Under the pieces are notes generated by a model, which saw only the letters and a list, made by a program, of their open reading frames with translations, made no database searches and had not been told where the DNA came from. Source: Psammoneis japonica (Eukaryota). Taken from it: a stretch of 26,223 nt of DNA. Shown piece after piece: positions 5,159-25,560 of the stretch (its first letter is position 1; each line of letters opens with the position of its first letter). Location of the stretch: NCBI GenBank assembly GCA_008632985.1, contig QPGO01000105.1, positions 248,001-274,223 on the forward strand, given 5' to 3'. The translations under genes and the position numbers were made by a program.

Positions 5159-5466
5159 GCAGGTCTTCAGTTTGTGTAAAAGTATAGTGGTAGTTGCATG
5201 GACAATAATGGCATTGCCTCTAGTCCTCTCGTATGACATTGTGTGCATTTCCACACGATTTGGAATATCAAAACACTCTCCGCACGTTGTTTTTGTCGTC
5301 ATTGCACTCTGGCTTGCATCACCACAAGTCATCAGCGTTGCATTCAAGACATCCTTCTGAGTCGGCACCCTTGCCTCTCTTGTCGCAATTTCTTTCTGTC
5401 GAAACAAATCACCTTGTCATGCCATTTTGCCATGTCCTCATGTGCTTTTACAACAACAGCACACTG

Positions 5467-5890
5467 AAGGCCACGTCATTGTTGTCCATGTAACTTCCAC
5501 CACACTTTGACACAAAATGAAGAGCTGTTCAATTGTTTTTCTTGTCGACACTGTCCTTGGGTTTGTCATTGTTCACCAGTGGTTGCTCGCCATTCTTTTC
5601 TTCTTGATTGGTTGCATTGGGCGGAGCATTGGCATCATCTTGACTGCAATGTCGTGGCAATGTCAATCGTGCCGTAGATGTCTCAATCATGGCAGGCAGC
5701 AGTGCAGAGGTGGAGGAGACGGGCGCTGCTGCTGCTGCAGCGGCGACTGGCAGCAGAGTGTCTTGAATGCAATGCTGTTGACTTGTGGCGATGCATGCAA
5801 GCCAGAGAGCAATGACGACAAAAATGACGTGCTGAGAGTGTTTTGATGTTTCAAATCCTGTGGAAATGTGCACAATGTCATGCAAGAGGA
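5467..5890. pseudogene. Scrambled, degenerate duplicate of the ubiquilin 3' CDS and 3' flank
   Basis: 5467-5647 is an inverted copy of ~5040-5220. 5650-5757 is a direct copy of ~4916-5043 with an internal deletion. 5757-5890 is an inverted copy of ~5224-5352. Confidence 0.85.
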
Positions 5891-5894
5891 TGAA

Positions 5895-6970
5895 TGGAGC
5901 TGCTGATTTTGCAGGAACTCAATTGAAATGTTGTCTGATCAAAGGTGTGGTTTCATGACACCCTTCTCACATGCTGTGCTGAAACACCTCCCAACCCAAC
6001 CCAGGAGTGTGATGGATGCGGGCACAAATTTTCCACACAACATGTGCTGGAGTGCCAAAAAGGCGGCCCAGTCATCTCTTGACATGACTGAGTCAGAGAA
6101 GAGCCAGCTGACATTTTTGGCAAATCCACCAAGCCCTCTTCAGTGCACGACAAACCTTCAATTGACCCTGGCCACAACTCAAGGAGCTCAGTGGACAGCA
6201 CTGAGAAGAGTGAGAGCAAGCCAATGTCTCCAAGACCCTTCGCAAATCAAAAGATGGTGACAGAGGCAACATTCTGGCATGAGGTTGGGTGGCAAACATT
6301 GACTGGTGCCATTCTTGATGTTCGAGTCACAGACACGGTTGCAAAATTGCATCACTCAAAATGTCCAGAGAAAGTCCTGGATGGAAGCCCCCCATCCCCC
6401 CATGAGATGGAGAAGAAGTGTGGGTGCCTCAAGCCATGCCTTGACCAACAACGACACCCCCACTTTTCACCCTTTGGTCCTTGCACATTGAGCGGTGGGT
6501 CAATCAGAAAAGAGGCAAAAGCCACCCTGCACGCAATTGTGCGCGCGCTGCACAAACCAGTTTCTTCAGCGGTGCGCTGCAAAAAAGAAATGTTTTGACT
6601 CACACGGTGAAGAGAGGTGCCTTTGATTAGATGACATTTCAACTGATTTCCTGAGAAGTTGACACTCACACATGGATGGACAGGCAGACTGACAACAGTT
6701 GTTTCTGGCTGGTGCAAATTCTGTGCATGACTCTGAGAGCCGCGGCGATGATTCCAGCAGCAGAGGAGGGCCTCTCTGGCTCCTGGAGTGGAGGCACAGA
6801 GGCGTGCAACTGGTTGATGATGCAAGGTCTAGCTTGACAAGACTCAAAGCTCTTTGGAAAATTGTGAGAGACTTGGAAGGGCTCGCTGATGGAGAACCCA
6901 TTCCAATGTCTCCGCAAGATCTGTCTGACACGTTGACAGTCAGAGCACGGACGACTGTTCCATTCAGCTG
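5895..6970 (+). mobile_element. Degenerate non-LTR retrotransposon remnants (C-terminal CCHC knuckle + restriction-like endonuclease, CRE/R2-like)
   Basis: Frame-broken translation gives CDGCGHKFSTQHVLECQKGG (CX2CX8HX3C knuckle), RGNIL, ILDVRVTD, EKK..LKPCLDQQRH.FSPF and IRKEAKATL, matching the RLE-type non-LTR C-terminus. A second RGD..WSGGTE-like fragment lies near 6740-6860. Confidence 0.7.
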
Positions 6971-7210
6971 AGAGTGATCCACTGTCTGCCTCCCGAAAAG
7001 GCATCGACGAACCTGCGTCAGCATTCCTGTCTGTCTGCCCGCTGAAATCAATGCCTGCAGATGCCAATGAGAAAATGATTTGAATTCAAAGGGGTTGCTG
7101 CCCTGTCAGTTAGCTGCAGTCATCATTGCCTCCCCATCTCATCTGCTGTTTTTTGCGCTGTCATTCATCTGCTTGTTGTTGCCTTTGCAAGTTGTTTCAA
7201 TCTAACAACC

Positions 7211-8522
7211 ATGTCCGTTGCCCCACCTGCTGTTGACCTTGCAACTGACGGCTGGCATGATGACAACAATGGCAATGATCTGCCAGCCTTTTTGCGCAGA
7301 GTTGCTGACGACGACGATGATGATGATGAGGATGATGTGCCAGCTCTTTTGCGCAGAGTTGCTGATGACGACGACGATGATGATGATGAGGAGGACGATG
7401 ATGAAGAGCAGCAGCCTGTTGATGAAGAGCAGCAGCCTGTGGATGTCTGCAATGCATCGAACATTTTAGATGCTGTCTTCTGTGGTCTTGACGATGATTG
7501 GTCTACTCCCATTGTGTTTCCCATCTCTGTTGTCCATTCCAAAGGCGATCCACCCTCTTTTTTCATGGACACCAACATGAGCGAGTTCCTTGGCAAAGAT
7601 GGGCCTGGCACTGCTCTTCATCGACACGCGCATGTCTGCTTTGACACAGCGAAGTGCCCCCCACTGCCCGCTTCTATAAAGCCTTTCTCCAAGGCTGACA
7701 CAAGCCATGCCACTTTGTCAGAGGATTTCTGAAAATGTGTGGCAAGCAATGGCTTTGAGGCAATTTCCAATGGTGGTGGCCGCATCATCTGTTCCTGCCA
7801 TGTCCCGCACTGCCAGAAACCCAAAAGACGCGATGCAACAGTTCCCTCAACATCACACAGGAAAACATCCCTTCGTGATGATCGCTGTCGCAACAATCGC
7901 AAACACGGCAACAAGAAGCATCCTCGACAGCAGCAGACAACCAAGGCCCCAAATCTTGAGGACACGTGTGGTTGGAACATTCGCATCCAAGCTGACGCTT
8001 TTGGGCATTTCTTCAAGTGTGGCACTGGCCGTGGTTTTCATTGTAATCACCACCAACGACTTCCCGAAGAGATTTCCAAGAAGATTCGTCACCTGAGTTC
8101 ATCCACCCTCTTGTCTATGAAGCGAATGAGAAAGGGTCGCTTGGGGGCAGGCCATGCATGCAACTGCATTCTTGCCAATGAGGAATGCTTCCTGTCAAGG
8201 CAGCAGGTTCGTTGCGTCATGCGACAGGCTGACAAGGAAGAGTTAACCCCATTCCTACCCTCTTCTGAAGACACCGCTTTGGATGACAGCATCCTGGAGC
8301 TTCAGAGGTTTTTTCAGAGTCGTGAAGACATTGAATGCTCTGTTCTTGCAAGTGGAGCTAACGCTGTGCAGACGCCAACCCGGGAACGCAACCTGCGTTT
8401 CCAGTCCTCGTTGCTTTTCAATGAATCTCATGTCAATGGAGAAAGGGAGATCCAGAACCTCGAGGAACTTTGTTCCGAGGTGGTCGACCAGTGCAGGCGT
8501 GAGAGGGAAGCCGCCCAGCTTG
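7211..8522 (+). pseudogene. MULE transposase copy 1, N-terminal part (acidic repeats + FAR1/WRKY-like Cys/His DNA-binding region)
   Basis: ATG 7211 (MSVAPPAVDL). Premature TGA at 7730 (CGA in copy 2). Motif TCGWNIRIQADAFG.FFKCGTGRGFHCNH. Collinear with copy 2 up to the LTR insertion at ..GCCCAGCTTG. Confidence 0.75.
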
Positions 8523-8889
8523 TGCAGCATGCGACTGTTGTGTGCATGTTTATGATTGCACATTATTTGTGTGTCAATCGTACCACAGTCGTGGATGCGT
8601 ACAAAGGACAGAACGATCACACAGAGTTGATCGGATGTCGAGAATTGCAAATACGATCGATTGACGATGTTGACATCTTGCGTGTCAATGGCAATCGTAT
8701 CCGGACAATCTGTTGTCACGAATATATTCTCCGAAAGGCCTTTTGTCTGTAGAAGCAGTGCAGAAGCTTTAGGCCATTGAGAACTCGTTCGGAGAAACCA
8801 AAAATCACAGAGCAAAATTTAATCTCATAATTTCCACTTTTCGTACACTATTCTACTTTCGTTTACACTCGTTCTTCGAGCATAGTGCA
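8523..8889 (+). repeat. 5' LTR (367 bp, TGCA...TGCA)
   Basis: Direct repeat of 12882-13248 with TG...CA termini and an imperfect 10-bp terminal inverted repeat. Confidence 0.93.
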
Positions 8890-8943
8890 TTGTGCATACA
8901 CACCACAGAAGGTAAAAAGCACGGAAAATGAAAATTTTAACTA

Positions 8944-11900
8944 ATGTGCCTTTGCAAATTCTTCTATGAACAGGAACGAATCGCATCAGTTCTGCTGGAA
9001 TCGATTTCCGAGCGGAAGAAGCTCAAGCCGAGCAGTGCCTCAAGATGGAACGCTGTTTTTCGTCTACCAGACAAAAGGATTCGCTCTAATGCGGTCTGTT
9101 CCAAGTGTCTCAGGACCAAGGACTCTACAAGAACACAGCATTGTCGAAACATCCACACCAAGTCATGGTTGGGTAGAATTTCAAGTCTTGAGTCGATCAG
9201 ATCCGAGAAACACGTCTGCCATGCAAGGAGAGACTATTGGAGAGTTTTTTGAGACCGAATTGATGATCCTCGAGTCCAAGGAGCAAGAGGGAATCGTTGG
9301 AAAGTACCTCAAGCGTCTCACAACACATGTCCTCCGAGGAAATGCACTTCAGAATCAGGGAAATTATTTTCGAGACGACCTGAAGAAACCAGAGCTGCTT
9401 GACAGCGAGAAAGCCTCTGATAGACCCAAGAGGTCAATGATGAGAGTCCACGCGACCCTCAGATGGATTCTAAGTCGAATCTAGCGGGAAACCGAGCGCT
9501 GATTTATCAGCTATCACTCGCACCGCAAGGATGGCAGCATCAGTCTACTGTCCAAAACAATCAACCATTGCAACTCATCCTTGATGAACTGATTAAGTTT
9601 TGAGTCATCTAAAGGTCGTTCATGACGTCCGTGACGAAAAAACATGTCAACTCAGGCTCTGATAGCGCAGTTGGTTCCAAAATAAAAAAGGTTCCAAATT
9701 TGGTTCCAAAAATGGTCTCCCATATGGTACCACCACAATCCAAAGTGAATGAAAGGTCCAATCTTTGAAAAAAGAATACCTGCATCACGGATTAAAGCCA
9801 TTCTGAAAATGAATTAGCGAAAGAGTGCAAGGGTGGCTCTAAAAGAGACCCAAAAATACGACGCTCTAAATGGCAATCGCACGCGAACGTGACGAGAGCA
9901 GAAACACCTCTGTGAAAGAGGAATTGAACTGAACTATGAACTAGGCAGTTCACAAAAACAATTAAAGCGAGTTCCTCGATAAAGGAACGTAAAAATAAGA
10001 GCGAAAATTAAGACTCTAAAACGCTTAACGAATGAAACTGTCAATTTAGAAAAATTGACCCGATCGAGTCCGATCAAAAAATCACACCGCTCAAGGAGCA
10101 CAACGCGTTACAGGACGTCTGGAAACCCAGAAAAAGCATCACAGTATGTTGTACGAGTCCTATTCTCGCTGTCCACATGACTGCTTCTCTGAGAAAAGCA
10201 AAAAATAAGCTTCTACGTGTTCTCTCGATAAAGAACATCGTCAGCCCATGATTTTACGCAACATCATGCGAAGGTTGAGAACCAAAAAATCCGCCACCAA
10301 AAACTTGGGAAACCAAGGGTGAGCTCTTTACGACTGACAGTAAACACCGAATTCAGTTCTCACTGTGCGAAATTTAAGGCACACTGATGTTCAAACAGTG
10401 TGTGTTGAAAACACTAAATTTTCTTCAGGTTCAAATGATGTGATCATGGGACGCGACTTAATGTCCAGTCCTACAAGTCACATTGGACTACGCAAATGAA
10501 GAAATCTAATGGGAAGAAGCAATTACCTTATGAAGAATGTTCACACACTCTTCGATGCCGATGTTTTCAAGCTGAAAACCGATCACATTGAAAAATGTGA
10601 CGCCGTGAATAGAGTTAATAACGGAACCAATGGTCCTCGACTCACATTGTCACGCCATCGATCTTAATCAAGTGACAACTACGGCGATGCATCTAACCCA
10701 AATGAACACAACCAACTCAATCTTCTTCTTAAGAGGTTGAAATCGTTTTGAAAAGTTCCTCAGACGAATGCATGGGAAGCATCAGTGGATCTCATCGTGG
10801 AAAATCTGACGCGATTCCACGACGCGTGAGAACCTTCTCCTATCATAGTCTTTGGAGGCGTCCAATCAAAAGGAGTTTGACCTATTATGAAAGATTGAAG
10901 TCTTAAGAATGAAATTACTCTGAACAAGTCGCTCTGAGACTCATTGTCCAAAGAAAACAGGTCGAGTTCGACCGCATCCGACACTCAGAAGCTTAGTATA
11001 AGGTTCATACAGGTGGTGTATCCTTTACCCAATATTCAGGAAATACTATTGAAGCAAGAACGTTTCATATATGCAATCTATTTGATTCAAACATGGAATG
11101 CCACCATGTCAAATAAAAAAAGCACACGTCGTGCTCACACGAAAATCATGCCGTGGGGAGAAAATGAGTACTATGGACTTCCAATGAGAATCTATAGAGC
11201 CCCAGATATTTTTATACAACACTTGAGTGAACTCATAACAGGTTTGAAGTTGTCAGAACGACTATATGTGATCGTTTGTGCCTGACAAAAGTGACTTCAA
11301 AATATCACCTGTACAAGTAACAGCTTAATACGGCATTCAAACGACTAGAACAGTTGCTTAGAAGGTTAACAACAAAAGTCCTTCACTATTTAACTTGAAA
11401 TAAACTATCAAGACTTCCATACGTAACGATATGCAATCGATTACAAAGAAAATGGAGGCGATTCAAGCAATCGCAACACGAGAAAAACGTAAAGAACACT
11501 ACGACATCTCGTTGTCATACGTTACTATTATCGAGACATGTAGTCTCAACGATCTCCTGTACAATACTAGCCAAATTCACCTCAATAAAGGTCAAACGGC
11601 AAAAGTACAAGTACGGAACGAAAAGTCTCGGAAAATATGGAGCGTATCAAATCAAAAACTATATTGTTATCATACACGGATTTCAATATTATACGTTACA
11701 ACGGAAAAAAGAACTTCTGTCCATAGTGAAAACACTTATAAAATTCCGAAATATACTGTTTGGCCAACAGATTTATACATATACGGATCATAAGACACAA
11801 CGGACAAAGTCATACGTTGACAACTTCAGTCCCGAATTAGAATACAACGAGGGCAAGGCGAACATCGTCGCGATAGACGCGATCAGCCGACTTACTATAG

Positions 11901-12870
11901 AAAATTGAATCCTACGACAATGTCCTACCGTTAAAACGGGATAAAGACATTCCCTCCAAATTGTCGGACGCGACATATCATACGAACACTTTTCGTGGAG
12001 GCGAGCGAGATCGAAAAATGCTCATGTCACAAGGATAAAATCGCCTTTTTAAAGGACGATTTAGGAAAAAACAGTGACAGATTGGTATACATTATACGTA
12101 TCCACTTCACACTGGCAAAAGACAATCTCACAACACCCGTACGGTTGTATTGTACAATGTACGAGGCAAGACATTAAAATATACATCATGTCGACACACG
12201 AGATGTGCCAAAGATCTAGAAAAAGAAAAGAAAAATGGACATTTATCCACTTAGTGCACGAAACCAGTGCCTTCGGAATGACAAAATAACACCGGTATGT
12301 CAGAAAGAAACGTCCAAATAACGATTAAAATCCAACTGATAGATGGTTGAAGTACAAAAAAAAAATCCATAATGGAATTCATAACCATCACAGGATTGAT
12401 TATCAAGACGAAATAATGGTCATAATATCTTTGACCATCGTTTATTATTACTTATGAAACGTGGTAGTGCAGCAGAGCAATATGGCATATAAAGTAAGCC
12501 CGCCAAACTACATGAAATCCACAAGTAAGTAAGTGAACGCCACAATTAAGAGCGTACATTAAGTACTGAGCACGATGCTATGTACAATCGATATCAGGAA
12601 AAACACTTACTCCAGGACAATTAGTCCTTGTGTTCATATCAACAAGAACGTCAATGAGAATACTCGACGTAATACTATATATATACATATTAAGTGAGAA
12701 ACAAACAATGTCACTCTCAAAAGACATTCGGAAATTGGAACGGCTCTATATTGCCTATACAAAACAACAACAGTCATTGCTAATGGCACAATACAGTGAA
12801 AGTGGAGACATTATTGACACTGTCGATGTCCGTCGAATAATCCACTTACAAATGACTCTAATGTGCAATT
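8944..12870 (+). pseudogene. Decayed Gypsy gag-pol
   Basis: Fragments across frames: gag-like NALQNQGNYFRDDLKKP (~9340-9390); protease tail IMGRDLM (~10444); RT YPLPNIQEILLK and PWG..Y..LPMRI..APDIF (~11020-11215); RNase H EKELLSIVKTLIKFRNILFGQQIYTYTDHK and GKANIVA.DAISRL (~11705-11895); integrase NPQ..ERVH..L and TPGQLV (~12515-12630). Many stops and indels. Confidence 0.8.
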
Positions 12871-12881
12871 AGGGAGGCGAA
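12871..12881 (+). promoter_or_regulatory. Polypurine tract of the Gypsy element
   Basis: AGGGAGGCGAA immediately precedes the 3' LTR start TGCAG at 12882. Confidence 0.75.
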
Positions 12882-13248
12882 TGCAGTATGCGACTGTTAT
12901 ATACATATTTATGATTATATATTATTTATATGTCAATCGTACCACAGTCGTGGATGCGTACAAAGGACAGAACGATCACACAGAGTTGATCGGATGTCGA
13001 GAATTGCAAATACGATCGATTGACGATGTTGACATCTTACGTGTCAATAGCAATCGTATCCGGACAATCTGTTGTCACGAATATATTCTCCGAAAGGCCT
13101 TTTGTCTGTAGAAGCAGCACAGAAGCTTTAGGCCATTGAGAACTCGTTCGGAGAAACCAAAAATCACAGAGCAAAATTTAATCTCATAATTTCCACTTTT
13201 CGTACACTGTTCTACTTTCGTTTACACTCGTTCTTCGAGCATAGTGCA
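12882..13248 (+). repeat. 3' LTR (367 bp)
   Basis: Begins TGCAGTATGC and ends GCATAGTGCA (9/10 inverted match); followed by the TSD CTTG. Confidence 0.93.
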
Positions 13249-13252
13249 CTTG

Positions 13253-15244
13253 GTCCTGAGGACAACCTCTTTGTCGGTGCTGCTTGGACACTCAAGGGCG
13301 AGACACGATTGTTTCGCCAAATGCCACATGTGATTAAAGTGGACGCCACATCTCACACCAACAACGAGAAAAGGCCATGCCTGACTTTCTCCGTCCGTGC
13401 GCCAAATGGCTCTTGCATTGTTTTCCTCCGAATCTTTCTTCCTGATCAAACACAGGGGACGTTTTGGTGGGTGTTTCAGGTGGTGCTACCCACTCTACTT
13501 GATGCAGACACACTGCGGCGAATCAAGTTGGCATTGACGGATGGAGACTCCCAAGAAATCTCGGAGTTGCGCAGTGCAATTCAAGTCTACATGCCGGATG
13601 TCTTCCAAGGATGTTGTGGCTGGCATGTTGTGGAAAAGGGATGGTTGCGTCACTGTCCTGGTGAGACCTGTGTGTCTCCTGGCCAGAGGCGTGAGACCTG
13701 CAAGCAATTTGTTGCCGCAGTCAAAGCCTGGCTGCATTCATTCATGCACCCTGGAGGGTGCGAGAATGAAGATGAACTCAAGGTCTCCAAGTTGTTGCTC
13801 ATCATGTTTCTGCATTCCCCAAGAGTCCTCCAGATGTGCGACGGCATCGAGTCAACCGTTCAGCGCGAGACAAGGTGTGGGCCTGGGAGAACTGCTGTGC
13901 CTTCCACCGCAAGAAATTCCTCCGCCATCATGAGGAAGCAAACAGTTCTAGCCACGAGGGTGCCAACTTTGGCATGAAGAACCATTCTGCTCCAGTGCTG
14001 CCATTGCAGAACTTGGCCACCAGCGCCATGAACTTTGCCATGCAATCGGACGTAAAGGTTGCAGAGCTGCACGCAGAAAGCAACCGCATGGCAACAACTA
14101 AATGCCTCTGGTCTAATCTGCCTGCAGCGGACCATGTCGTCACCATGTGTGAGGGTGTCATTGCTGAATGGTGGAAGCATCAACATGACTTCCACGTGCG
14201 GTGCTGCGGCAAGGAGGATGGCGAACACCCGACATGGGAGGCAGTCCACAAGAAATCCAATGAAGCTCCATCGTCAAACGAAGAGGAAGAAGCCAATCCT
14301 TTCTTTTCCAAAATGCCCAAGTTTCGAAGAGTGCAAAAAGTGAAGCTAGATGCAGAGGGTGTGCTTCGCTGCAGCTGCGGAGAGTTCCAGAGAATGGGCA
14401 TTGGCTGCACGCACTTCCTTGCGGTTGGCCAGCACGAACTTGGCAATGCACATTTGGGATTCACACACCATGATGTTTCCTTTGTTTGGCGGCGCAAGCA
14501 CTTGGATTGTTTGATTCCATCCTCGACAATGATGTTCGAGGACCATGCCTGCCTGAATGGTGGCAGCCAGCACCTCAACCAACTTCAAGCACACCGCCGG
14601 ATGAATCCGTTTTTGACAAACCGCAGGATGTTTGTCACTCACTCCACAATTGCAGTTCCGATCAAGCAAACCGAGCACTGCGTTGTGTGGACCCTGCACA
14701 ATTGGGTCTAAGCGCAATTGGTTGCTCCCAATTGACCAATGTCGATGCAAGCCAACGTGACCAACTGGGAGATGTGTTCAATCTTGAAGACGATGAGCAC
14801 AGTGCAGACGGCGATCTGTTTGCTCTCGAAGAATCAGAAATGAACAGTTCTCCTCAAGACCCTCCTGCAAATGTCACTCCCACAAACATGCGACAGGTGT
14901 TGGCCCCCAAGTTGTCGACTCTGTGTGGTCCATGCGAGTCGGAGAACATCCATCAAATGGAAGCACCCGACTTATCTCACGTTGTTAAATCAATCGATGA
15001 TCTAATTGTGGACATCCGAGGAAAGTTTCACACACACCGTGATGCGCAAGAGACCAATGACACAAGCAGTGAGGGGCCGCGATGGGTGTCCAACTGTTCT
15101 GAACGTGACTCCAAGAAGCGACGCACTCATGTTTGTAGAAATGGTCTAAATCTCTGTTGGCCACCCACTTGTTTGGTGCCAGACTTTCTTGCACAATTGC
15201 AAATGGATTGGAGACAATCTGTTGGAACTCAAACTAGATCTTAA
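13253..15244 (+). pseudogene. MULE transposase copy 1, DDE core + SWIM zinc finger
   Basis: IKVDATSHTNNEKRP (first D), LTDGD (second D), CGWH (CxxH), NSSSHEGANFGMK (E region) and LRCSCGEFQRMGIGCTHFLAV (SWIM). Frameshift near 13865 and a ~43-bp deletion at 14503 relative to copy 2. Confidence 0.88.
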
Positions 15245-17363
15245 TTTTGAGTGCATCGTAGAGGACCTTCTTGCAAAAGGCCTCAGTCTCTCAACTGAGA
15301 GGGCGCAAACTGTTCACTGGGCATGGAACAGACAGCCGCTGCTTGGGATTTATGAGTTCTCGAGGACACTCATGTGACTGTAACTCAACGACGGACGAGG
15401 GGAGGTTGCCTGTGTCAGCAAGTTTCAGGTGCTCAACCAACTCATCCCAGATCACTTGCGAGTCACCGAATGGGATTGCATCGAACATTTGGTGGCAAGC
15501 ACCTGCATTCGTGCGTCCAGGCAGGTGAACTGCTGTTTCGTCATCACCGGTCGTTTCGAAAATAACGGAGTCCCGAAAGTGCGTGTCCTTAAAGAGCCTC
15601 TCCTCAAGTTTGCCCTGCTTCTTGCCCTCACACAGGCAGGACTCTGTGTGCCTTGTTCTCCTGAACGTGGCCACTCCCTTCTCTGTCTTGAGCCGTTGAA
15701 GTAGAGNNNNNNNNNNNNNNNNNNNNNNNNNNNNNNNNNNNNNNNNNNNNNNNNNNNNNNNNNNNNNNNNNNNNNNNNNNNNNNNNNNNNNNNNNNNNNN
15801 NNNNNNNNNNNNNNNNNNNNNNNNNNNNNNNNNNNNNNNNNNNNNNNNNNNNNNNNNNNNNNNNNNNNNNNNNNNNNNNNNNNNNNNNNNNNNNNNNNNN
15901 NNNNNNNNNNNNNNNNNNNNNNNNTTGTAGACTTTCAACTGATCTGCTTGGTTTGGAGTCCCATTCTTGGAAAGGGCACGGACAAAAAGGCAAGCCGTGG
16001 AGGTAAGAGACACCTCATTCTGCCATTGACGAAATGGCACAAGCTCTGGGTCGGGCAACTGACCCCATCGTTGGAAGGTCATTTGGCCACCCCGACCACC
16101 AGTCCTCTCCCTGAATGTGTTGAACAGAAAAATGATGAGCCTGGAAACATGACATCCAAACTTTTCGTTCACCATGTCCCTCCTTAACTTCCTTGGAGGG
16201 ACCAGCAGAAGAATCCAACTGGCGACACCAAGGAAGCAGGGTCCAGGTGCATGGCAATGAAAAGCATGGTGCACCGACTGCAATTCAATGCAGTTGAGGT
16301 TGAACTGCACACCCAACCGAACAATTGAGTCACAAACAATCATGGCGAACCAATCAGGGTCAAGATTGCAGTGGGTGCGATTGGCCGGGAACCCTGGAAT
16401 CCACTCGACTGCATCGCCGGCATCTCGCAGGCTGTTGCTGATCTTGAGTCTTGACACGTCGAATCGATCACAAGCTCTCACCAGGTCGTCGAGAATTGCA
16501 TCCTGGTTGCGCCTGTTGCAAAAGAGGTCATCAATGGATTTCCTCATCTGTCCATTGACTGCATGGCGACGGGGGACACCATCAGGGCCATCCTTGATCT
16601 TGGAAACACCACAGACAGGTTCGATGTCACCATTTTTGTCGTCGACGTGGGTGTCACAGTCCTCCTTCTTCTCTGGTGGAGCCGGCCTTGAGAGCGAACA
16701 ACAAATGACTTCAATCACAACAGAGGGATGGAGAGTGCCAGCAAATTCTTGTTGGCGCGTGGGGTTGAGACGATCCTCAAAGGGATTGTCGCCATCCACA
16801 AATGGCGCATCTTTGGCAAGCACTTTTTTGACATTTTGGAGACAGCAATCATCGCACCAATTGCAGTTGGGTCGCACTCCGCATCGTCTCCAACACTCGG
16901 AGAACAACAGGTGCCCTGCCGCAGGGACGGAACGCAGTGACCGTCTGGTGAGTCATCCCGGTCTCCAGACTGCCCACCACAATGACCCGCGTCGCAGCAG
17001 TTCGTTGAGCGCTGACAAATGGTTGTGGTTAAAGCACCGTCGGGGTTCTCGGTTTTCTTGGGGATTGGGTTGAAACGGCAAGCATGGGACATCAAGCGGT
17101 CAAACGAATCAAAATCAATTTCATTGACGATGTCGGAGAGTTCGTCACCCTTGCCCAACAGAACAAGTAAATCATTGGCATGATTTTTGTTCGGATCATG
17201 CAATTGCAGACCTGAACCGGATGTCGAATGGGAGTCAAGGCAGTTCCCAACCGAAAAAAGCAAAATTGCCAGGAGCGTCTGGCAGTGAGGAAAAACAGCA
17301 GTTTTCAGAAGGTGGGCTTGTTCTGGTGCTTGCGGCCAAAAGTGAATTCGATGAACATGATGC
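15234..17363 (-). pseudogene. MULE cargo gene B, copy 1 (5'-truncated, +2 frameshift near 16825, premature stop at 15291)
   Basis: Reverse complement of 18634-20761. ORFs 16715-17263 and 15291-16907 translate to the same protein as 17543-19924 and 19937-20761. Confidence 0.75.
15707..15924. other. N-run (218 bp) inside cargo gene copy 1
   Basis: Run of n in the sequence. Confidence 0.99.
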
Positions 17364-17620
17364 TGTCAAGTGATCCTGACGTTGTCAGTTGGGTTTGTCA
17401 ACCACTTCAGTTTGAACAATTTACTTCTCCTTACATTTACTCTTCAGCATGTGTGGTCCATTAAAAACTGTTCAGCAGTCATCATTCGAATTCTCAATGA
17501 CTGGCATTTGGTCAAAAATTTGAATTTTCGGTCGCCTCAACGGTGCACACAACCATCACACCGGCACAATGTTGTTTTGCGACGACGTTTTTCATGCCGC
17601 CGATGAAGCCACCGAACCGC

Positions 17621-17698
17621 GTAAGTGTCGCTGTGTGGTTTTTTTTACCTGTCAAGCCATCTTACAGTGTCTCACACTGTGCTTGTTGTTTTTCCCAG
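17621..17698 (+). other. Probable spliceosomal intron in cargo gene B
   Basis: GTAAGT donor, CTCAC branch-like motif at ~17671, pyrimidine tract TTGTTTTTCCCAG acceptor; 78 bp, phase 0. Confidence 0.65.
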
Positions 17699-18014
17699 CC
17701 AAAAAGAGGGAATCACGGATCGCATCACGATCGCAATCACGATCGCAACACACCACGAGTCCGCCGCAAACGTGCTCGCGAACATTCCTTTTCCAAGAAT
17801 CGGTCGCCCCAGAAGCGTCGGACTCGTCGTCGTGGCAAGAGCAAAAACCCTCCGCGACCTACATCCTTTGTGTCGAGTTTTTTTTCTGGCGTGAAATGCA
17901 GTCTCTTGGCTGTTTTTGGTTCTTTTTTCACTCCCCCAACTGTGATGCCGCCAGTGCCCAGTCCACCACAGCCTTCTCTGTTGACTTCTCCACCACTTGT
18001 TGGTGTGATCGATC

Positions 18015-18110
18015 ACTCGTTGGCTTGTGCCAGTGACTCGGGGAAGAAGACCGCCGGCTTGGACTCGTTGGCTTGTGCCAGTGACTCAGGGAAGAAGACC
18101 ACCGGCTTGG
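18015..18110 (+). repeat. 48-bp tandem duplication (SLACASDSGKKT[A/T]GL x2)
   Basis: ACTCGTTGGCTTGTGCCAGTGACTC.. starts at 18015 and at 18063. Confidence 0.95.
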
Positions 18111-20078
18111 AACCCACCATGTTGGAGCAAGAGCCGACTTCTCCACTGGCAAATGCTGGTGTGATCAAATGCTCTGTGGCGAACCGCCAGAAAAAATCTC
18201 TGTCATCGTCAAGTTCTTTGACATCCTCTCAGGATTTGCTGACTTCTCCACTGGTGAATCCCGGTGTGATTGATCACTCTGCGGCGAATTCCCAGAAAAT
18301 GTCGCGGCCATCGTCGATTTCGTCGACGTCTCATGAGTCAACGTCTACACTGTTGCCACCTGCTGGTGTCAGTGACCGCTCTGCAGCGAACCGATCGTCG
18401 CCATTGTTGGATTCGAAACTGTCGTCGATGCCGGTTCTCTTGCCAAAAGAGGCTTTGTCCTCTCGCCAAGAGGTGTTCAACCTCTTGCTTTCATTGTCAC
18501 CCTCCCAGGAAGATGACGATTCTATTTTTAATCACGGCTTTTTGGTGGAGGAAATGAAGCCCTCCTTCTTTCTGCTTCCCAAGGGAAACAGAAATGAGTT
18601 GGTTTCTTTTGGGAAACTGTCGGCCGAGCGCTGGCATTGTGTTCATCGAATTCACTTTTGGCCGCAAGCACCAGAACAATCCTGCCTTCTGAAAACTGCT
18701 GTTTTTCCTCACCACCAGACGCTCCTGGCAATTTTGCTTTTTTCGGTTGGGAACTGCCTTGACTCCCATCCGACATCCGGTTCAGGTCTGCAATTGCATG
18801 ATCCGAACGAAAATCATGCCAATGATTTACTTGTTCTGTTGAACAAGGGTGACGAACTCTCCCACATCGTCAACGAAATTGATTTTGATTCGTTTGACCG
18901 CTTGACATCCCATGCTTGCCGTTTCAACCCAATCCCCAAGAAAACCGAGAACCCTGACGGTGCTTTAACCACAACCATTCGTCAGCGCTCAACGAACTGC
19001 TGCGACGCGGGTCATTGTGGTGGGCAGTCTGGAGACCGGGATGACTCACCCGACGGTCACTGCGTTCCGTCCCTGCGGCAGGGCACCTGTTGTTCTCCGA
19101 GTGTTGGAGACGATGCGGAGTGCGACCCAACTGCAATTGGTGTGATGATTGCTGTCTCCAAAATGTCAAAAGCACTTGCCAAAGATGCGCCATTTGTGGA
19201 TGGTGACAATCCCTTTGAGGATCGTCTCAACCCCACGCGCCAACAAGAATTTGCTGGCGCTCTCCATCCCTCCATTGTGATCGAAGTTGTTCGTTGTTCG
19301 CTCTCAAGGCCGGCTCCACCAGAGAAGAAGGAGGACTGTGACACCCACGTCGACGACAAAAATGGCGACATCGAACCTGTCTGTGGTGTTTCCAAGATCA
19401 AGGATGGCCCTGATGGTGTCCCCCGTCGCCATGCAGTCAATGGACAGATGAGGAAATCCATTGACGACCTCTTTCGCAACAGGCGCAACCAGGATGCAAT
19501 TCTCGACGACCTGGCAAGAGCTTATGATCGATTCGACGTGTCAAGACTCAAGATCAGCAACAGCCTACGAGATGCCGGCGATACAGTCGAGTGGATTCCA
19601 GGGTTCCCGGCCAATCGTACCCACTGCAATCTCGACCCTGATTGGTTCGCCATGATTGTTTGTGACTCAATTGTTCGGTTGGGCATGCAGTTCAACCTCA
19701 ACTACATTGAATTGCAGTCGGTGCACCATGCTTTTCATTGCCATGCACCTGGACCCTACTTCCTTGGTGTCGCCAGTCGGATTCTTCCACCAGCCCCTCC
19801 AAGGAAGTTAAGGAGGGACGTGGTGAACGAAAAGTTTGGATGTCATGTTTCCAGGCTCATCATTTTTCTGTTCAACACATTCAGGGAGAGGACTGGTGGT
19901 CGGGGTGGCCAAATGACCTTCTGACGATGGGGTCAGTTGCCCGACCCAGAGCTCACGCCGTTTCGTCAATGGCAGAATGAGGTGTCTCTTGCCTCCGCGG
20001 CTTGCCTTTTTGTCCGTGCCCTTTCCAAGAATGGGACTCCAAACCAAGCAGATCAGTTGAAAGTCTACAAGCGTTTTT

Positions 20079-20351
20079 NNNNNNNNNNNNNNNNNNNNNN
20101 NNNNNNNNNNNNNNNNNNNNNNNNNNNNNNNNNNNNNNNNNNNNNNNNNNNNNNNNNNNNNNNNNNNNNNNNNNNNNNNNNNNNNNNNNNNNNNNNNNNN
20201 NNNNNNNNNNNNNNNNNNNNNNNNNNNNNNNNNNNNNNNNNNNNNNNNNNNNNNNNNNNNNNNNNNNNNNNNNNNNNNNNNNNNNNNNNNNNNNNNNNNN
20301 NNNNNNNNNNNNNNNNNNNNNNNNNNNNNNNNNNNNNNNNNNNNNNNNNNN
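20079..20351. other. N-run (273 bp) inside cargo gene copy 2
   Basis: Run of n in the sequence. Confidence 0.99.
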
Positions 20352-20750
20352 AGTCCCACCTGTGTGAGGGCAAGAAGCAGGGCAAACTTGAGGAGAGGCT
20401 CTTTAAGGACACGCACTTTCGGGACTCCGTTATTTTCGAAACGACCGGTGATGACGAAACAGCAGTTCACCTGCCTGGACGCACGAATGCAGGTGCTTGC
20501 CACCAAATGTTCGATGCAATCCCATTCGGTGACTCGCAAGTGACCTGGGATGAGTTGGTTGAGCACCTGAAACTCACTGATGCAGGTGACCTCCCCTCGT
20601 CCGTCGTTGAGTTACAGTCGTGTGAGCATCCTCGAGAACTCATAAATCCCAAGCAGCGGCTGTCTGTTCCACACCCAGTGAACAGTTTACGCCCTCTCAG
20701 TCGAGAGACTGAGGCCTTTTGCAAGAAGGTCCTCTACGATGCACTCAAAA

Positions 20751-23700
20751 TTAAGATCTAGTTTGAGTTCCAACAGACCATCTCCAATCCATTTGTGGTT
20801 GCACAAGAAAGTCTGGTGTTAAACAAGTGGGTGGCTGACAGAGATTTAGACCATTTCTACAAATTTGAGTGCGTCGCTTCTTGGAGTCACGTTCAGAACA
20901 GTTGGACACCCATCGCGGCCCCTCACTGCTTGTGTCATTGGTCTCTTGCGCATCACGGTGCATGTGAAACTTTCCTCGGATGTCCACAATTAGATCATCG
21001 ATTGATTTGACAATGTGAGATGAGTCGGGTACTTCCATTTGATGGATGTTCTCCGACTCGCATAGACCACACAGAGTCGACAACTTGGGGGCCAACACCT
21101 GTCGCATGTTTGTGGGAGTGACATTTGCAGGAGGGTCTTGAGGAGAACTGTTCATTTCTGATTCTTCGAGAGCAAACAGATCGCCGTCTGCACTGTGCTC
21201 ATCGTCTTCAAGATTGAACACATCTCCCAGTTGGTCACGTTGGCTTGCATCGACATTGGTCAATTGGGAGCAACCAATTGCGCTTAGACCCAATTGTGCA
21301 GGGTCCACACAACGCAGTGCTCGGTTTGCTTGATCGGAACTGCAATTGTGGAGTGAGTGACAAACATCCTGCGGTTTGTCAAAAACGGATTCATCCGGCG
21401 GTGTGCTTGAAGTTGGTTGAGGTGCTGGCTGCCACCATTCAGGCAGGCATGGTCCTCGAACATCATTGTCGAGGATGGAATCAAACAATCCGTCCAGACC
21501 CTCAACATGACGGTCCCCGTTGAACGCATGGTGAAAGTGCTTGCGCCACCAAACAATGGAAACATCATGGTGTGTAAATCCCAAATGTGCGTTGCCAAGT
21601 TTGTGCTGGCCAACCGCAAGGAAGTGCGTGCAGCCAATGCCCGTTCTCTGGAACTCTCCGCAGCTACAGTGAAGCACACCCTCTGCATCTAGCTTCACTT
21701 TTTGCACTCTTCGAAACTTGGGCATTTTGGAAAAGAAAGGATTGGCTTCTTCCTCTTCGTTTGACGATGGAGCTTCATTGGATTTCTTGTGGACTGCCTC
21801 CCATGTCGGGTGTTCGCCATCCTCCTTGCCACAGTGCCGCACGTGGAAGTCATGTCGATGCTTCCACCGTTCAGCAATGATGCCCTCACACATGGTGACG
21901 ACATGGTCCGCTGCAGGCAGATTAGACCAGAGGCATTTAGTTGTTGCCACACAGTTGCTTTCTGCATGCAGCTCTGCAACCTTTACATCCAATTGCATGG
22001 CAAAGTTCATGGCGCTGGCGGCCAAGTTCTGCGACGGCAGCACTGGAGCAGAGTGGTTCTTCATGCCAAAGTTGGCACCCTTGTGGCTAGAATTGTTTGC
22101 TTCCTCATGATGGCGGAGGAATTTCTTGCAGTGGAAGGCACAGCAGTTCTCCCAGGCCCACACCTTGTCTCACGCTGAACAGTTGACTCGATGCCATCGC
22201 ACATCTGGAGGACTCTTGGGGAATGCAGAAACATGATGAGCAACAACTTGGAGACCTTGAGTTCATCTTCATTCTCGCACCCTCCAGGGCACATGAATGA
22301 ACACAGCCAGGCTTTGACTGCGGCAACAAATTGCTTGCAGGTCTCACGCCTCTGGCCAGGAGACACACAGGTCTCACCAGGACAGTGACGCAACCATCCC
22401 TTTTCCACAACATGCCAGCCACAATGTCCTTGGAAGACATCCGGCATGTAGACTTGAATTGCACTGCGCAACTCCGAGATTTCTTGGGAGTCTCCATCCG
22501 TCAATGCCAACTTGATTCGCCGCAGTGCATCTGCATCAAGTAGAGTGGGTAGCACCACCTGAAATGCCCACCAAAACGTCCCCTGTGTTTGATCAGGAAG
22601 AAAGATTTGGAGGAAAACAATGTGAGAGCCATTTGGCGCACGGACGGAGAAAGTCAGGCATGGCCTTTTCTCGTTGTTGGTGAGAGATGTGGCATCCACT
22701 TTAATCACATGTGGCATTTGGCGAAACAATCGTGTCTCGCCCTTGAGTGTCCAAGCAGCACCGACAAAGAGGTTGTCCTCAGGACCAAGCTGGGCGGCTT
22801 CCCTCTCACGCCTGCACTGGTCGACCACCTCGGAACAAAGTTCCTCGAGGTTCTGGATCTCCCTTTCTCCATTGACATGAGATTCGTTGAAAAGCAACGA
22901 GGACTGGAAACGCAGGTTGCGTTCCCGGGTTGGCGTCTGCACAGCGTTAGCTCCACTTGCGAGAACAGAGCATTCAATGTCTTCACGACTCTGAAAAAAC
23001 CTCTGAAGCTCCAGGATGCCGTCATCCAAAGCGGTGTCTTCAGAAGAGGGTGGGAATGGGGTTGACTCTTCCTTGTCAGCCTGTCGCATGACGTGACGAA
23101 CCTGCTGCCTTGACAGGAAGCATTCCTCATTGGCAAGAATGCAGTTGCGTGCATGGCCTGCCCCCAAGCGACCCTTTCTCATTCGCTTCATGGACAAGAG
23201 GGTGGATGAACTCAGGTGACGAATCTTCTTGGAAATCTCTTTGGGAAGTCGTTGGCGGTGATTGCAATGAAAACCACGGCCAGTGCCACACTTGAAGAAA
23301 TGCCCAAAAGCGTCAGCTTGGATGCGAATGTTCTAACCACACGCATCCTCAAGATTCAGGGCCTTGGTTGTCTGCTGCCGTCGAGGATGCTTCTTGTTGC
23401 CTTGTTTGCGATTGTTACGACGGCGATCATCACGAAGGGATGTTTTCCTGTGTGATGTTGAGGGAACTGTCACATCGCGTCTTTCGGGTTTCTGGCAGTG
23501 CGGGACACAGCAGGAACAGATGATGCGGCCACCACCATTAGAAATTGCCTCAAAGCCATTGCTTGCCGCACATTTTCGGAAATCCTCTGACAAAGCGGCA
23601 TGGCTTGCATCAGCCTTGGAGAAAGGCTTTGTAGAAGCGGGCAGTGGGGGGTGCTTCGCTGTGTCAAAGTGGACATGCGCATGTCGATGAAGAGCAGTGC

Positions 23701-24099
23701 CAGGCCCATCTTTGCCAAGGAACTCGCTCATGTTGGTGTCCATGAAAAAAGAGGGTGGATCGCCTTTGGGGTGGACAACAGAGACGGGAAACACAATGGG
23801 AGCAGACCAATCATCGTCAAGACCACAGAAGACAGCATCTAAAATGTTCAGTGCATTGTGGACATCCACAGGCTGCTGCTCTTCATCAACAGGCTGCTGC
23901 TCTTCATCATCGTCCTCCTCCTCATCACATCATCATCGTCGTCATCAGCAACTCTGCGCAAAAGAGCTGGTGCATCATCCTCATCATCATCGTCGTCGTC
24001 GTCAGCAACTCTGCGCAAAAAGGCTGGTGGATCATTGTCGTTGTTGTCATCATGCCAGCCATCAGTTGCAAGGTCAACAGCAGGTGGGGTGACGGACAT
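20751..24099 (-). pseudogene. MULE transposase with SWIM domain, copy 2 (no insertion; frameshifts near 23925, 23340 and 22170; putative catalytic E->K)
   Basis: ORFs 23848-24099, 23333-23869, 22061-23197 and 20751-22163 carry VDATSLTNNEKRP, LTDGD, CGWH, NSSHKGANFGMK and CSCGEFQRTGIGCTH. Confidence 0.88.
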
Positions 24100-24649
24100 G
24101 GTTGTTAGATTGAAACAACTTACAAAGGCAACAACAAGCAGATGAATGACAGCGCAAAAAACAGCAGATGAGGTGGGGAGGCAATGATGACCGCAGCTAA
24201 CTGACAGGGCAGTGACCCCTTTGAATTCAAATCATTTTCTTGTTGGCATCTGTAGGCATTGATTTCAGCGGGTAGACAGACAGGAATGCTGACGTAGGTT
24301 CGTCGATGCCTTTTCGGGAGGGAAATGGGCAATCGTCCAGCTGCGTGGGTAGCTCTTTATAAACTGTGTAGGAAATGTACCAGGGTTTGTGTAGAATTTG
24401 ATAACGACACAATTCCATTTTGATGGCGACAAGTAGAAACCTACATGGTTTTCCAGTACAAATTTGATAGCGACGCCACGGACGGAATCATTGTCAACGT
24501 GCCAATCACCGCATTATCACAGGTTTTCGATCATAGGGAATTCCTTATTTGGCGCTGAATTTCCTAGACAAGGAAATATAAGAAAATAAGAAAAGGAAAA
24601 AACAATTGGTGATTCAATGCGTGGTTGCAACCGTCATGAACCACTCATC

Positions 24650-25560
24650 TAGAAGTTGATTTGCACAGAGCCTGTGGCTGCCAAAACACCTCTTTTTGTG
24701 CAATGCACTCAATGAGTGAGGCAGACACCATTGGGAGGCACTTTCTCAAGAGGACAAAAAGATGTGCTTCCGTGGTCTCTTCAAGTGCAATCTGCTCCAA
24801 GCAAGCCCACAAAAGCTCAAATTGGTGTGGCAAATCTGGCACACATTGTGCAACAAAACAAAAGAGGAAAGCCTCTTTGTTTTCTTCATTTGACAAGCCA
24901 ATGAGGGGGAAATCAAGATGTGAGCATGAGCGGGGTTTTGGGTCATGGGGGGCTCCTCTCTCAGCAGCCCCCAAATTTCCTCGGATGAAAGGAAAATTTC
25001 CCGCACTTGTTTGGTGCCAGTTGTGACCAACACAGTCCTTTCATCTTGCAGCCAATGTTGTGGTCCACTCATCTCTGTTGGATGGCCAGCACAGAGCACA
25101 GCTGCTGCAGCACTTCAAGCAGCCCGCCACCATGAGAAGCTTGGCGCTGCTTGTCTCTTGTGCCGCAGATGGCTCCTTTCCTTTTGCAATTGTTTTTTCA
25201 TGCAGAGCTGGCAGAAATGCCATTTGACTGCAGTGGCACAGCTGCATGATGTGGCCCAATGCCAACATCATGAGAGGAGGCCAGCACCCACTGTGCTGGC
25301 GGTGGCTGGCTGGCTGGGCTGTGCATCGCAGCTGGCCTTGCCAGCACAGCACCACAAACAAGCACATTTCCTTTGACACCAAACCACAGGAAAATGCACT
25401 CTTGATTGCTTGTCTCTTGTGTTGCAGCAGGCAGATCCTTTCCTTTTGCAACCATTTTTCACAGAGAGCTGGCTGCCAGATTGCCAAGCAACTGATAGAA
25501 ACTGAAGGCAAATGGCAAGAATTCAAACAAACAACTCCTCACTGCTGTCTAAATGGCAGA
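24650..25560. other. Unidentified degenerate, TpA-depleted sequence with a ~70-bp imperfect direct repeat (~25148-25215 / ~25407-25480)
   Basis: Almost no TpA; TGCTTGTCTCTTGTG..CCTTTCCTTTTGCAA..AGAGCTGGC occurs twice; no recognisable protein motif. Confidence 0.45.

Follow-up and report, generated by a model that had tools for sequence, protein, structure and literature searches.

Fungal RIP changes C to T mainly at CpA, which makes TpA and lowers the GC content; it needs duplication and affects both copies of the duplicated sequence. In cytosine-methylated silent DNA, decay of CpG to TpG/CpA is expected. ADAR hyper-editing is an A>G change with a preference for a 5' U or T, and long inverted repeats are its classic substrates.

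The signature closest to the one considered here, TpA-specific A:T>G:C hypermutation, was described for integrated viral DNA of Bigelowiella natans (Mettrop et al., bioRxiv 10.64898/2026.01.13.699255). According to the accessible part of that preprint, two hypermutable regions yielded 231 single-nucleotide mutations, of which 230 were A>G or T>C, all on TpA, and the hypermutation, which arises in culture and in some lines only, was seen directly in mutation-accumulation lines, at a rate orders of magnitude higher than in the remaining genome. The same text counts 124 TpA-poor, CpA+TpG-rich clusters in the B. natans genome, finds DDE transposase and reverse-transcriptase domains over-represented among TpA-poor coding sequences and proposes an ADAT2 homologue. 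The signature may be that of a genome-defence system.

Here, we analysed a window (the whole stretch of 26,223 nucleotides) of Psammoneis japonica DNA, in which a comparable footprint covers a domain of mobile DNA. As in B. natans, so far as the accessible text of the preprint goes, the changes are almost only transitions, on either strand, that turn TA into TG or CA; they stay within certain regions, here of putatively non-host DNA, that contrast sharply in rate with their surroundings, and they leave low TpA with high CpA+TpG; and repetition is not required, the NCLDV region there and the flanks here being single copy. Unlike the rhizarian B. natans, the host here is a stramenopile (the named homologues are diatoms), and the word 'diatom' is absent from that text. 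Viral DNA is affected there, whereas here it is a MULE pair with anonymous flanks, a mutated host gene fragment included, and the depletion is near saturation (O/E 0.02-0.15), in contrast to a Rho of 0.45 in the NCLDV region. CpG decay, spread into a young insertion and an effect of RTAY vs TTAA context are found here, while 'CpG', 'context' and 'trinucleotide' do not occur in the accessible text. The B. natans evidence is direct, from mutation-accumulation lines, and the evidence here is comparative. We also applied the B. natans cluster thresholds, which are set on 1-kb windows as the 5% cut-offs of another species (1.52 for CpA+TpG). By these, the 1-kb windows of 5001-8000 form a cluster, and both thresholds are passed by 6 of the 21 such windows in 5001-26000, most falling narrowly below the CpA+TpG value of 1.52. 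All 13 of those in 13001-26000 have a Rho of TpA of 0.34 or less, and only three reach 1.52.

The preliminary description had regarded the process as perhaps undescribed, which has been overtaken by the 2026 B. natans preprint with the same signature. No report of the TpA signature in diatoms was found in the literature searched, subscription journals being outside its scope; the SPLASH paper, considered as a report of diatom hypermutation, was rejected, as it concerns antibody genes.

TpA depletion across an island of mobile DNA

The TpA count of each part of the window was compared with the expectation from base composition (O/E). The host genes at 1-5266 contain 210 TpA vs 353 expected (O/E 0.60). 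Among them is an intact ubiquilin gene (3305-5158, plus strand) with the Pfam domains UBQLN1, ubiquitin and UBA and with diatom ubiquilins as homologues; this unmutated neighbour serves as the ancestral reference for the copied fragments described below. The left flank of the domain (5267-6988), which is single copy and without a recognised gene, has 5 TpA vs 110 expected (O/E 0.045; CpG O/E 0.43). It is followed on the plus strand by MULE copy L, whose first part (6989-8522) encodes the transposase N-terminal region and whose second part (13249-17363) encodes the transposase domain, the SWIM finger and the 3' region (Pfam PF10551, PF04434); the two have 11 TpA vs 93 and 28 vs 230 expected (O/E 0.12). 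Inserted in this copy is a young LTR retroelement (8523-13248, plus strand) with 274 TpA vs 407 expected (O/E 0.67) and a CpG O/E of 1.15. Its LTRs (8523-8889 and 12882-13248) have TG..CA ends and a CTTG 4-bp target duplication, and its interior is degenerate. A unique spacer (17364-18633; 11 TpA vs 77 expected, O/E 0.14) leads to MULE copy R (18634-24321), with the transposase on the minus strand and 48 TpA vs 320 expected (O/E 0.15). The 'MULE arms' are two whole inverted MULE copies, 5.7 kb each and 96% alike; the stretches 6989-8522 and 22786-24321 form an inverted repeat that is 95-96% alike. Within the domain there is also a patch of ordinary TpA (24322-24650; 18 vs 28 expected, O/E 0.64) and CpG (1.02), and the last part is the right-hand hypermutated block (24651-25550), where a single TA stands vs 56 expected (O/E 0.018; CpG O/E 0.16). 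The N gaps of the window are sized, 218 and 273.

The near-absence of TpA at 5.4-8.5 kb and 13.3-25.5 kb beside normal host genes, on which the preliminary description was built, is thus confirmed, with an O/E of 0.02-0.15 (5267-8522 and 13249-25550) vs 0.60. The domain starts at about 5267 and not at 5467, since there is no TA between 5266 and 5449. Its edges are sharp at about 5267, at about 25550 and at the LTR insertion, and they coincide with element boundaries. In the depleted parts TG and CA are raised (O/E 1.3-1.8), while ApT is normal (0.74-1.03). The TG and CA counts are nearly equal (345/316, 362/369 and 490/504), so that both strands are about equally affected, in agreement with the strand symmetry claimed at first (T->C or A->G at TpA).

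The nature of the anonymous parts was not revealed by the searches made. Pfam gave no match for five ORFs of the flanks, the spacer and the 3' arm region, with 6092-6598 as the ORF scanned in the left flank, and no viral gene was recognised, and with the ORFs of the flank, the spacer and the LTR interior nothing exceeded the cut-off except a weak RT_RNaseH fragment. An Atlas search with the second ORF of the arm (18635-19924) yielded no usable match, one with the ubiquilin did not narrow down the taxon, and blastn of the patch, the right block, the spacer and the right end against the window returned short internal repeats only. The left and right flanks, aligned in purine/pyrimidine code, gave scores of 25-27 vs a shuffle maximum of 26, which indicates no relation.

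Direction of the change in gene, MULE and LTR copies

Incomplete copies of the 3' end of the ubiquilin gene lie scrambled in the left flank at 5463-5890 (5463-5647 inverted, 5640-5737 direct and 5751-5890 inverted). From source to copies, none of the 16 TAs was kept, vs 298 of 395 other dinucleotides (Fisher p = 5e-10). Twelve of these losses are a single transition, one is a double transition and three are non-transitions; the copies also carry a few A>G changes outside TpA. At the source of the fragments the TAs are retained, the non-coding stretch 5177-5266 included. The change therefore runs from TA to TG/CA, and it took place after the duplication.

Transitions account for 205 of the 213 bases at which the MULE arms differ. 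The dinucleotide tally over the full arms gives 28 aligned sites with TA vs TG/CA, 49 with CA vs TG and 63 with CG vs TG/CA; when events were grouped on a slightly different arm alignment, the same classes numbered 27, 44 and 60, with about 25 other events. Only 29 TAs are common to both arms, vs 457 TG and 444 CA. The loss is also visible in the encoded protein. A protein search with the MULE ORF limited to similar lengths found nothing, whereas an exhaustive HMMER search returned 953 relatives; metagenome scans for DNA of MULE relatives (with a small alignment and the Tyr-poor metagenomic protein P0271) gave no confirmed locus, and a cluster look-up attached neither name nor organism to the Tyr-poor homologues. 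The ORF of copy R at 22061-23332 contains 1 Tyr in 423 aa (0.2%), vs a median of 3.1% in 45 homologues. At all six columns in which at least three of five close homologues have Tyr, the window has other residues (C, C, C, H, F and L), while 108 of 173 other residues at such conserved columns are kept. The commonest amino-acid difference between the two MULE copies is Cys/His, at 10 codons (CAY vs TGY). Five of these could be aligned, and there the homologues have Tyr at three, Arg at one and a mixture at one. As one of the five came from CpG and not from TpA, the CA/TG double sites are a mixture. The strand coordination of the 49 CA/TG sites (19 runs vs 25.5 expected, z = -1.9) is suggestive only.

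These counts bear on the view that no directional process took place, the elements having been TpA-poor on arrival, through foreign origin or odd composition, and their differences stemming from the usual C>T change of methylated DNA at CpA/TpG and CpG. CpG decay is indeed present, both in the 63 arm sites and in the low CpG of the domain (O/E 0.16-0.70), and one CA/TG codon site traces to CpG. However, a fragment of the host's own gene lost every one of its TAs, Cys and His stand in place of conserved Tyr codons, and C>T at CpA would make TpA, yet the arms share so few TAs beside about 900 TG and CA. The spacer is TpA-poor with normal CpG, and the edge of the LTR element is altered as well. 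We regard this view as scarcely credible.

The LTR pair differs at 15 bases in 367 nt. All are transitions, and all 15 lie at YpR (TA vs TG/CA, or TG vs CA), with none of other kinds. Ten of them fall in the 49 nt that adjoin the hypermutated domain: at this edge of the 5' LTR (8523-8571, plus strand), TG or CA is found at 10 of the 12 positions where the 3' LTR has TA, the polarity of the LTR differences resting on this position beside the domain. Two TAs of the LTR appear as TG in 69% of the matching contig depth, which would fit hypermutation of other copies as well as a family state of TG. Since the change spread into the edge of the LTR element, the process acted after its insertion.

The comparisons from which the preliminary description had argued all stand. 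The LTR pair indeed shows TA vs TG/CA, with every difference at TA/TG/CA sites; the hexamers that it quoted from the MULE arms are present at the places it gave for them, among 28 TA vs TG/CA sites; and the intact ubiquilin gene does polarise the change, with 12 of the 16 losses explained by one transition. Its wider claim of a directional process in putatively silent mobile DNA, neither RIP nor 5mC decay, is upheld by the polarity of the gene copies, the loss of Tyr and the independent hits in the MULE copies.

Reads, targeting and sequence context

The variants were looked for in Logan contigs made from public reads at about 33x depth, the runs being labelled 'DNA?' (an uncertain record). 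They are present: two contigs, 659 and 1105 nt long and at a depth of 33, agree with 5234-5892 and 5915-7019 at every base (0 differences), by which 1.76 kb of the depleted flank is reproduced exactly, and arm-specific contigs were found. The reads are not independent of the assembly, because they come from a single sample, probably the assembly's own. This single origin is what speaks for a sequencing or assembly artefact, e.g., systematic miscalls at modified bases. Such an artefact is nonetheless hardly tenable, as the contigs were built independently (k-mer depth about 33), the coding consequences are coherent (Tyr to Cys/His) and the boundaries match those of the elements.

The depth of the flank 5234-7019 equals that of the host genes, which makes it single copy. 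The most repeated thing in the window is the LTR family, with a summed depth of 70,000-83,000 vs 33 for single copy; it has about 2000 copies, and the one in the window has normal TpA except at its 5' LTR edge. The idea of a repeat-restricted process therefore fails, since a single-copy flank is affected (its TpA O/E of 0.045 is given above) and a member of the ~2000-copy family is spared inside the domain. RIP-like triggering is not supported either: the TAs are still present in the ubiquilin gene from which the fragment was copied, whereas RIP would affect both copies. The locus resembles fungal RIP in being transition-only and dinucleotide-specific, in the wrecking of mobile elements and in that it can leak into adjacent sequence. 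It differs in that TpA is destroyed and GC goes up (0.49-0.51 in the domain vs 0.40 in the young LTR element), and in that single-copy DNA is affected while the source of the duplicated fragment is spared. The pattern is best explained if targeting follows the chromosomal domain and not sequence duplication.

The TAs that survive suggest an order of attack. In the domain, 3 of the 104 remaining TAs stand in RTAY; the corresponding figures are 69 of 210 for the host genes and 93 of 267 for the LTR interior. TTAA accounts for 15 of the 104, vs 5 of 210 in the host genes. The best explanation, resting on survivors only, is that RTAY sites would be the first to mutate, with TTAA and CTAA/TTAG the last. 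The +1 base of the 42 late events that were oriented is C in 19, T in 11, G in 7 and A in 5, which a hand calculation shows as not significant (chi-square ~5.6, 3 d.f.).

A point beyond the preliminary description is that CpG is low in most of the domain. Ordinary CpG->TpG/CpA decay is a second process across most of the TpA-depleted DNA. The two are separable, because the spacer has a TpA O/E of 0.14 but a CpG O/E of 0.96. Deamination of 5mC at CpG likewise makes TG/CA in silent transposon DNA; it removes CpG, however, and not TpA.

Proposed process and its implications

We propose that 5267-25550 is a putatively silent mobile-DNA island, composed of the inverted MULE pair, the spacer and the single-copy flanks, on which a domain-aimed TpA mutation process has come near to completion; we put the probability of this account at about 0.8. 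A process at the DNA level would turn the A of 5'-TpA-3' into G on either strand, giving TG or CA, at a rate far above background. It stops about 100 bp or less from the neighbouring gene, and it has reached about 50 bp, and in weaker form about 170 bp, into the recently inserted LTR element. The evidence for it in the window consists of fixed differences. As for the chemistry, a TadA/ADAT2-like deaminase that is drawn to silent chromatin most likely converts DNA adenine to inosine; the purpose of the process may be to disable mobile or foreign DNA.

Thymine could be the base attacked instead: at TpA in silent chromatin it would be oxidised or otherwise modified (e.g., a TET/JBP-type enzyme would make 5-hydroxymethyl- or 5-formyl-uracil of it) and mispair with G, yielding T>C. 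It is known that 5-formyluracil mispairs with G. As TpA is self-complementary, T>C and A>G at TpA look the same in sequence, and TG and CA products are equally common. Yet the sole published treatment of the signature, in its accessible part, prefers adenine deamination and names an ADAT2 homologue, likewise as a proposal only (bioRxiv 10.64898/2026.01.13.699255), and we consider thymine modification improbable.

More doubtful still, and in our view very unlikely, is RNA editing made permanent, in which dsRNA of the MULE hairpin would be deaminated at UpA and its sequence then returned to the DNA, either through reverse transcription or through RNA-templated repair. An inverted repeat with 5.7-kb arms at the core of the domain is an ideal source of dsRNA, and RNA adenosine deaminases favour A>G with a 5' U, as is stated in the Discussion of the preprint (bioRxiv 10.64898/2026.01.13.699255). 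However, the single-copy flanks (5267-6988 and 24651-25550) and the unique spacer are no less depleted than the arms, MULEs transpose as DNA, the inserted LTR was altered in place at its edge, and both strands are about equally affected. ADAR prefers a 3' G, while the contexts of the survivors point to a 3' pyrimidine, and to our knowledge ADARs are confined to metazoans. Hyper-editing by ADAR is moreover an RNA-level event and not heritable, whereas here genomic DNA at single-copy depth is changed, with non-repeated flanks included.

A broader reading can be offered tentatively, at somewhat under even odds: diatoms would share with Bigelowiella a TpA-directed DNA-editing defence that is old and widespread in SAR, that works domain-wise beside cytosine methylation with a preference for RTAY, and that is guided not by copy number but, e.g., by small RNAs from the inverted MULEs or by a chromatin mark. 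It would be still active, as it has begun to eat into the new LTR insertion. The handles on the targeting signal and the enzyme are the sharp boundary on the gene side, the spread of about 50 nt and the spared member of the ~2000-copy family, together with the fact that CpG decay can be told apart from it and the order in which RTAY goes first and TTAA last. The base-editing field would also take an interest in a natural DNA adenine deaminase; if the reading is true, this would be a natural, double-strand-symmetric DNA adenine editor, in organisms some of which are transformable.

For such genomes, transposon annotation and molecular dating would need correction. Hypermutation accounts for all of the divergence between the LTRs here, so that ages estimated from LTRs would come out too high. 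Elements that it has altered are also stripped of Tyr codons and of TAA and TAG stops, with long false ORFs as the result. TpA-aimed A:T>G:C hypermutation of DNA has been reported once before, in 2026 and from one alga, a rhizarian. If a diatom has this footprint too, the system is no oddity of one lineage, and it could be studied in a group for which reference genomes and methylomes exist and, in some species, genetic tools as well.

Layout of the window and its TpA-poor domain

Two host genes occupy the left end of the window. The first, an ORF on the forward strand (108–2285), is made of three tandem units of about 350 aa with 70–96% DNA similarity. The proteins homologous to it are from diatoms, and some carry a sulfotransferase-domain label; single-unit homologues (about 310–400 aa) are found in many diatoms. 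The ORF appears to have arisen by a recent tandem triplication whose units share a single reading frame. The second is an intronless ubiquilin gene (3305–5158). Named homologues of both genes come from diatoms (Ditylum, Chaetoceros, Fragilaria, Thalassiosira, Skeletonema and others), then from other ochrophytes and from oomycetes.

At about 5267 the base composition shifts, and the changed domain extends to about 25550. Its core is formed by two inverted MULE copies, 96% alike: copy L (6989–8522 plus 13249–17363, forward strand) and copy R (18634–24321, reverse strand), with a unique spacer of 1270 nt (17364–18633) between them. A MULE transposase domain and a SWIM finger were detected by Pfam in both copies, and an exhaustive protein search returned 953 relatives of the transposase. 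An LTR retroelement (8523–13248) splits copy L; it has 367-nt LTRs, TG...CA ends, a 4-bp target duplication (CTTG) and a degenerate interior; since copy R does not carry this insertion, the element arrived later than the MULE duplication. The LTRs are almost identical, the interior is AT-rich and stop-filled, and its sole match is a sub-threshold RT_RNaseH fragment (11399–11908); the family looks very abundant and probably non-autonomous. The right end of the window cuts through a Copia-like fragment; this label comes from reading its translation, and Pfam gave no match for it.

We calculated the ratio of observed TpA to that expected from base composition (O/E) for each segment. In comparison to 0.60 in the host genes, the ratio was 0.045 in the left flank (5267–6988), 0.12 in copy L, 0.14 in the spacer, 0.15 in copy R and 0.018 at 24651–25550, where 1 TA stands against 56 expected. 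The near-absence of TpA claimed in the preliminary description is thus borne out by the segment counts (0.018–0.15 in the domain). In the depleted segments TG and CA are raised (O/E 1.3–1.8) and ApT is normal. Values of 0.67 and 0.64 were obtained for the LTR element and for a patch at 24322–24650, respectively. The patch (329 nt, CpG O/E 1.02, GC 0.41) sits between the end of copy R and the block with 1 TA in 900 nt, and its sequence has no match in the rest of the window. Either a recent insertion or a protected element could account for it. Because TAA and TAG need TpA, only TGA stops are left in the depleted domain, and ORFs of up to 807 codons without a family match are present on both strands; ORF length in such DNA is no evidence for genes.

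Direction of the change

Four lines of evidence, namely the ubiquilin copies, tyrosine loss, the differences between the MULE copies and the LTR pair, concur that TA changed to TG or CA, and the directional reading proposed earlier is well supported. Three pieces of the ubiquilin 3' end, in mixed orientation and scrambled order, lie exactly at the domain edge (5463–5890; source 4906–5359). All 16 TAs of the source are lost in these copies (8 to CA, 4 to TG, 1 to CG and 3 by non-transition changes), while 298 of 395 other dinucleotides are unchanged (p = 5e-10). The source itself keeps its TAs, including those in non-coding DNA up to 5266. At 5102–5403 the contig depth is 260–670, which means that part of the ubiquilin 3' region occurs more than once in the genome.

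Tyrosine is encoded by TAY, cysteine by TGY and histidine by CAY. The 423-aa MULE ORF contains a single tyrosine (0.2%), where the median among 45 homologues is 3.1%, and in the six alignment columns where at least three of five close homologues have Tyr it reads C, C, C, H, F and L. Two distant relatives of its transposase from ENA metagenome contigs, P0071 (613 aa) and P0271 (755 aa), at 23–24% identity, have 0.16–0.26% Tyr and raised Cys and His; Tyr is below 1% in 6 of the best 150 homologues. Judged from their composition, such Tyr-poor metagenomic proteins may carry the same hypermutation footprint from other genomes or samples.

The hexamer differences cited earlier between the MULE copies were found in place. 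Comparison of the copies gave 49 sites with CA versus TG, 28 with TA versus TG/CA and 63 with CG versus TG/CA, and a separate grouping of events gave about 25 further events of other kinds. The commonest amino-acid difference is Cys/His (10 codons); among the five such codons alignable to homologues, three correspond to Tyr, one, at a CpG site that took two hits, to Arg, and one is mixed. From these differences and the Cys/His codons it follows that each copy was hit independently after separation; most of the double sites derive from TA and some do not. TA is kept at 19 discordant sites in copy R and 9 in copy L, and a cluster of 7 TAs in copy R (19523–19809) corresponds to TG/CA at about 16190–16475 in copy L (e.g., Tyr in R, Cys in L), so the hypermutation seems patchy and unequal between the copies. 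The discordant CA/TG sites form same-orientation runs, 8 and then 5 consecutively, at 7068–7963 and its copy R partner (19 runs versus 25.5 expected, z = -1.9), a weak hint that adjacent hits fell on the same DNA strand.

Both LTRs of an element are identical when inserted. Here 15 of 367 bases differ: at 12 the 3' LTR has TA and the 5' LTR has TG or CA, with the polarity taken from the position next to the domain and not from an outgroup; one difference is opposite, and a single TG-versus-CA site supplies the remaining two. Differences of other types are absent from the 367 nt. Ten of the 12 TA-loss sites fall within 49 nt at the start of the 5' LTR, abutting the depleted MULE sequence.

Targeting, CpG decay and sequence context

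Contigs from a public run, at a k-mer depth of about 33, reproduced 5234–5892 and 5915–7019 with 0 differences, which excludes assembly error; the runs all derive from a single sample, which is probably also that of the assembly, and provide no independent replicate of the variants. Arm-specific contigs had a depth of 33 and those common to both arms about 64–70; the MULE occurs about twice, and the left flank, at the depth of the ubiquilin gene, is single copy. The LTR family has a summed depth of 70,000–83,000 versus 33 for a single copy (about two thousand copies' worth), and the member in the window is untouched except at its edge. The earlier view of the process as repeat-restricted is not supported: because the single-copy flank was hit and is most depleted, a member of a family of about 2000 copies was spared and the ubiquilin source is unmutated, the targeting is by domain and not repeat-induced. 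At four TAs of the window's LTR, TG or CA makes up 60–69% of matching contig depth, an unpolarised figure, and other family members may be hypermutated.

CpG O/E is 0.16–0.70 across most of the domain, as expected for methylated silent DNA. In the spacer it is 0.96 with a TpA O/E of 0.14, and therefore CpG decay and TpA loss are separable. The TAs left in the domain are a non-random sample: RTAY (GTAC, ATAC/GTAT, ATAT) accounts for 3 of 104 surviving TAs there, compared with 69/210 in the host genes and 93/267 in the LTR interior; the respective values are 15/104, 5/210 and 24/267 for TTAA, and 21/104, 12/210 and 23/267 for CTAA/TTAG. This preference, derived from surviving TAs, suggests that a purine before T and a pyrimidine after A would be favoured. 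At the LTR edge 7 of 7 RTAY and 3 of 5 TTAT sites were converted (alignment read by eye), and among 42 oriented late events an excess of C at +1 was non-significant by hand calculation.

Relation to known hypermutation

RIP was rejected on its two defining tests, direction and dependence on duplication. ADAR-type editing is ruled out by the change being in DNA and by the inclusion of unique sequence. A full-text literature search yielded one directly relevant work, that of Mettrop et al. (bioRxiv 10.64898/2026.01.13.699255) on mutation-accumulation lines of Bigelowiella natans. The 302 nuclear point mutations of these lines included 231 within two integrated viral regions, and A>G or T>C changes, every one at TpA, made up 230 of these; the rate was about 1000x the background, and some lines only were affected. 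The B. natans genome was reported to hold 124 clusters of 1-kb windows that are TpA-poor and CpA+TpG-rich, and TpA-poor coding sequences were enriched in transposase and reverse-transcriptase domains. With the thresholds given there, 5001–8000 forms a cluster here; in 13001–26000 all 13 windows are TpA-poor and 3 of the 13 also CpA+TpG-rich. The signature, which the preliminary description could not confirm as undescribed, is already on record in that preprint (10.64898/2026.01.13.699255). The window does not come from B. natans; the host here is a diatom, judging by the named homologues of both host genes. The available text of the preprint is free of the words "diatom", "CpG", "context" and "trinucleotide", and literature searches on diatoms, which covered sources outside subscription journals, yielded no report of the signature in this group.

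The B. natans authors propose that an ADAT2 homologue deaminates DNA adenine as a defence (10.64898/2026.01.13.699255). Adenine deamination is also our preferred mechanism, with a putative enzyme and targeting signal; modification of thymine is its main rival. The window is best classed with the TpA hypermutation described recently, as its member from a second lineage. To the anatomy of that process it adds a depletion close to saturation, CpG decay in the same domain, an abrupt boundary on the gene side, spread over a short distance into a new insertion, and a preference for RTAY.
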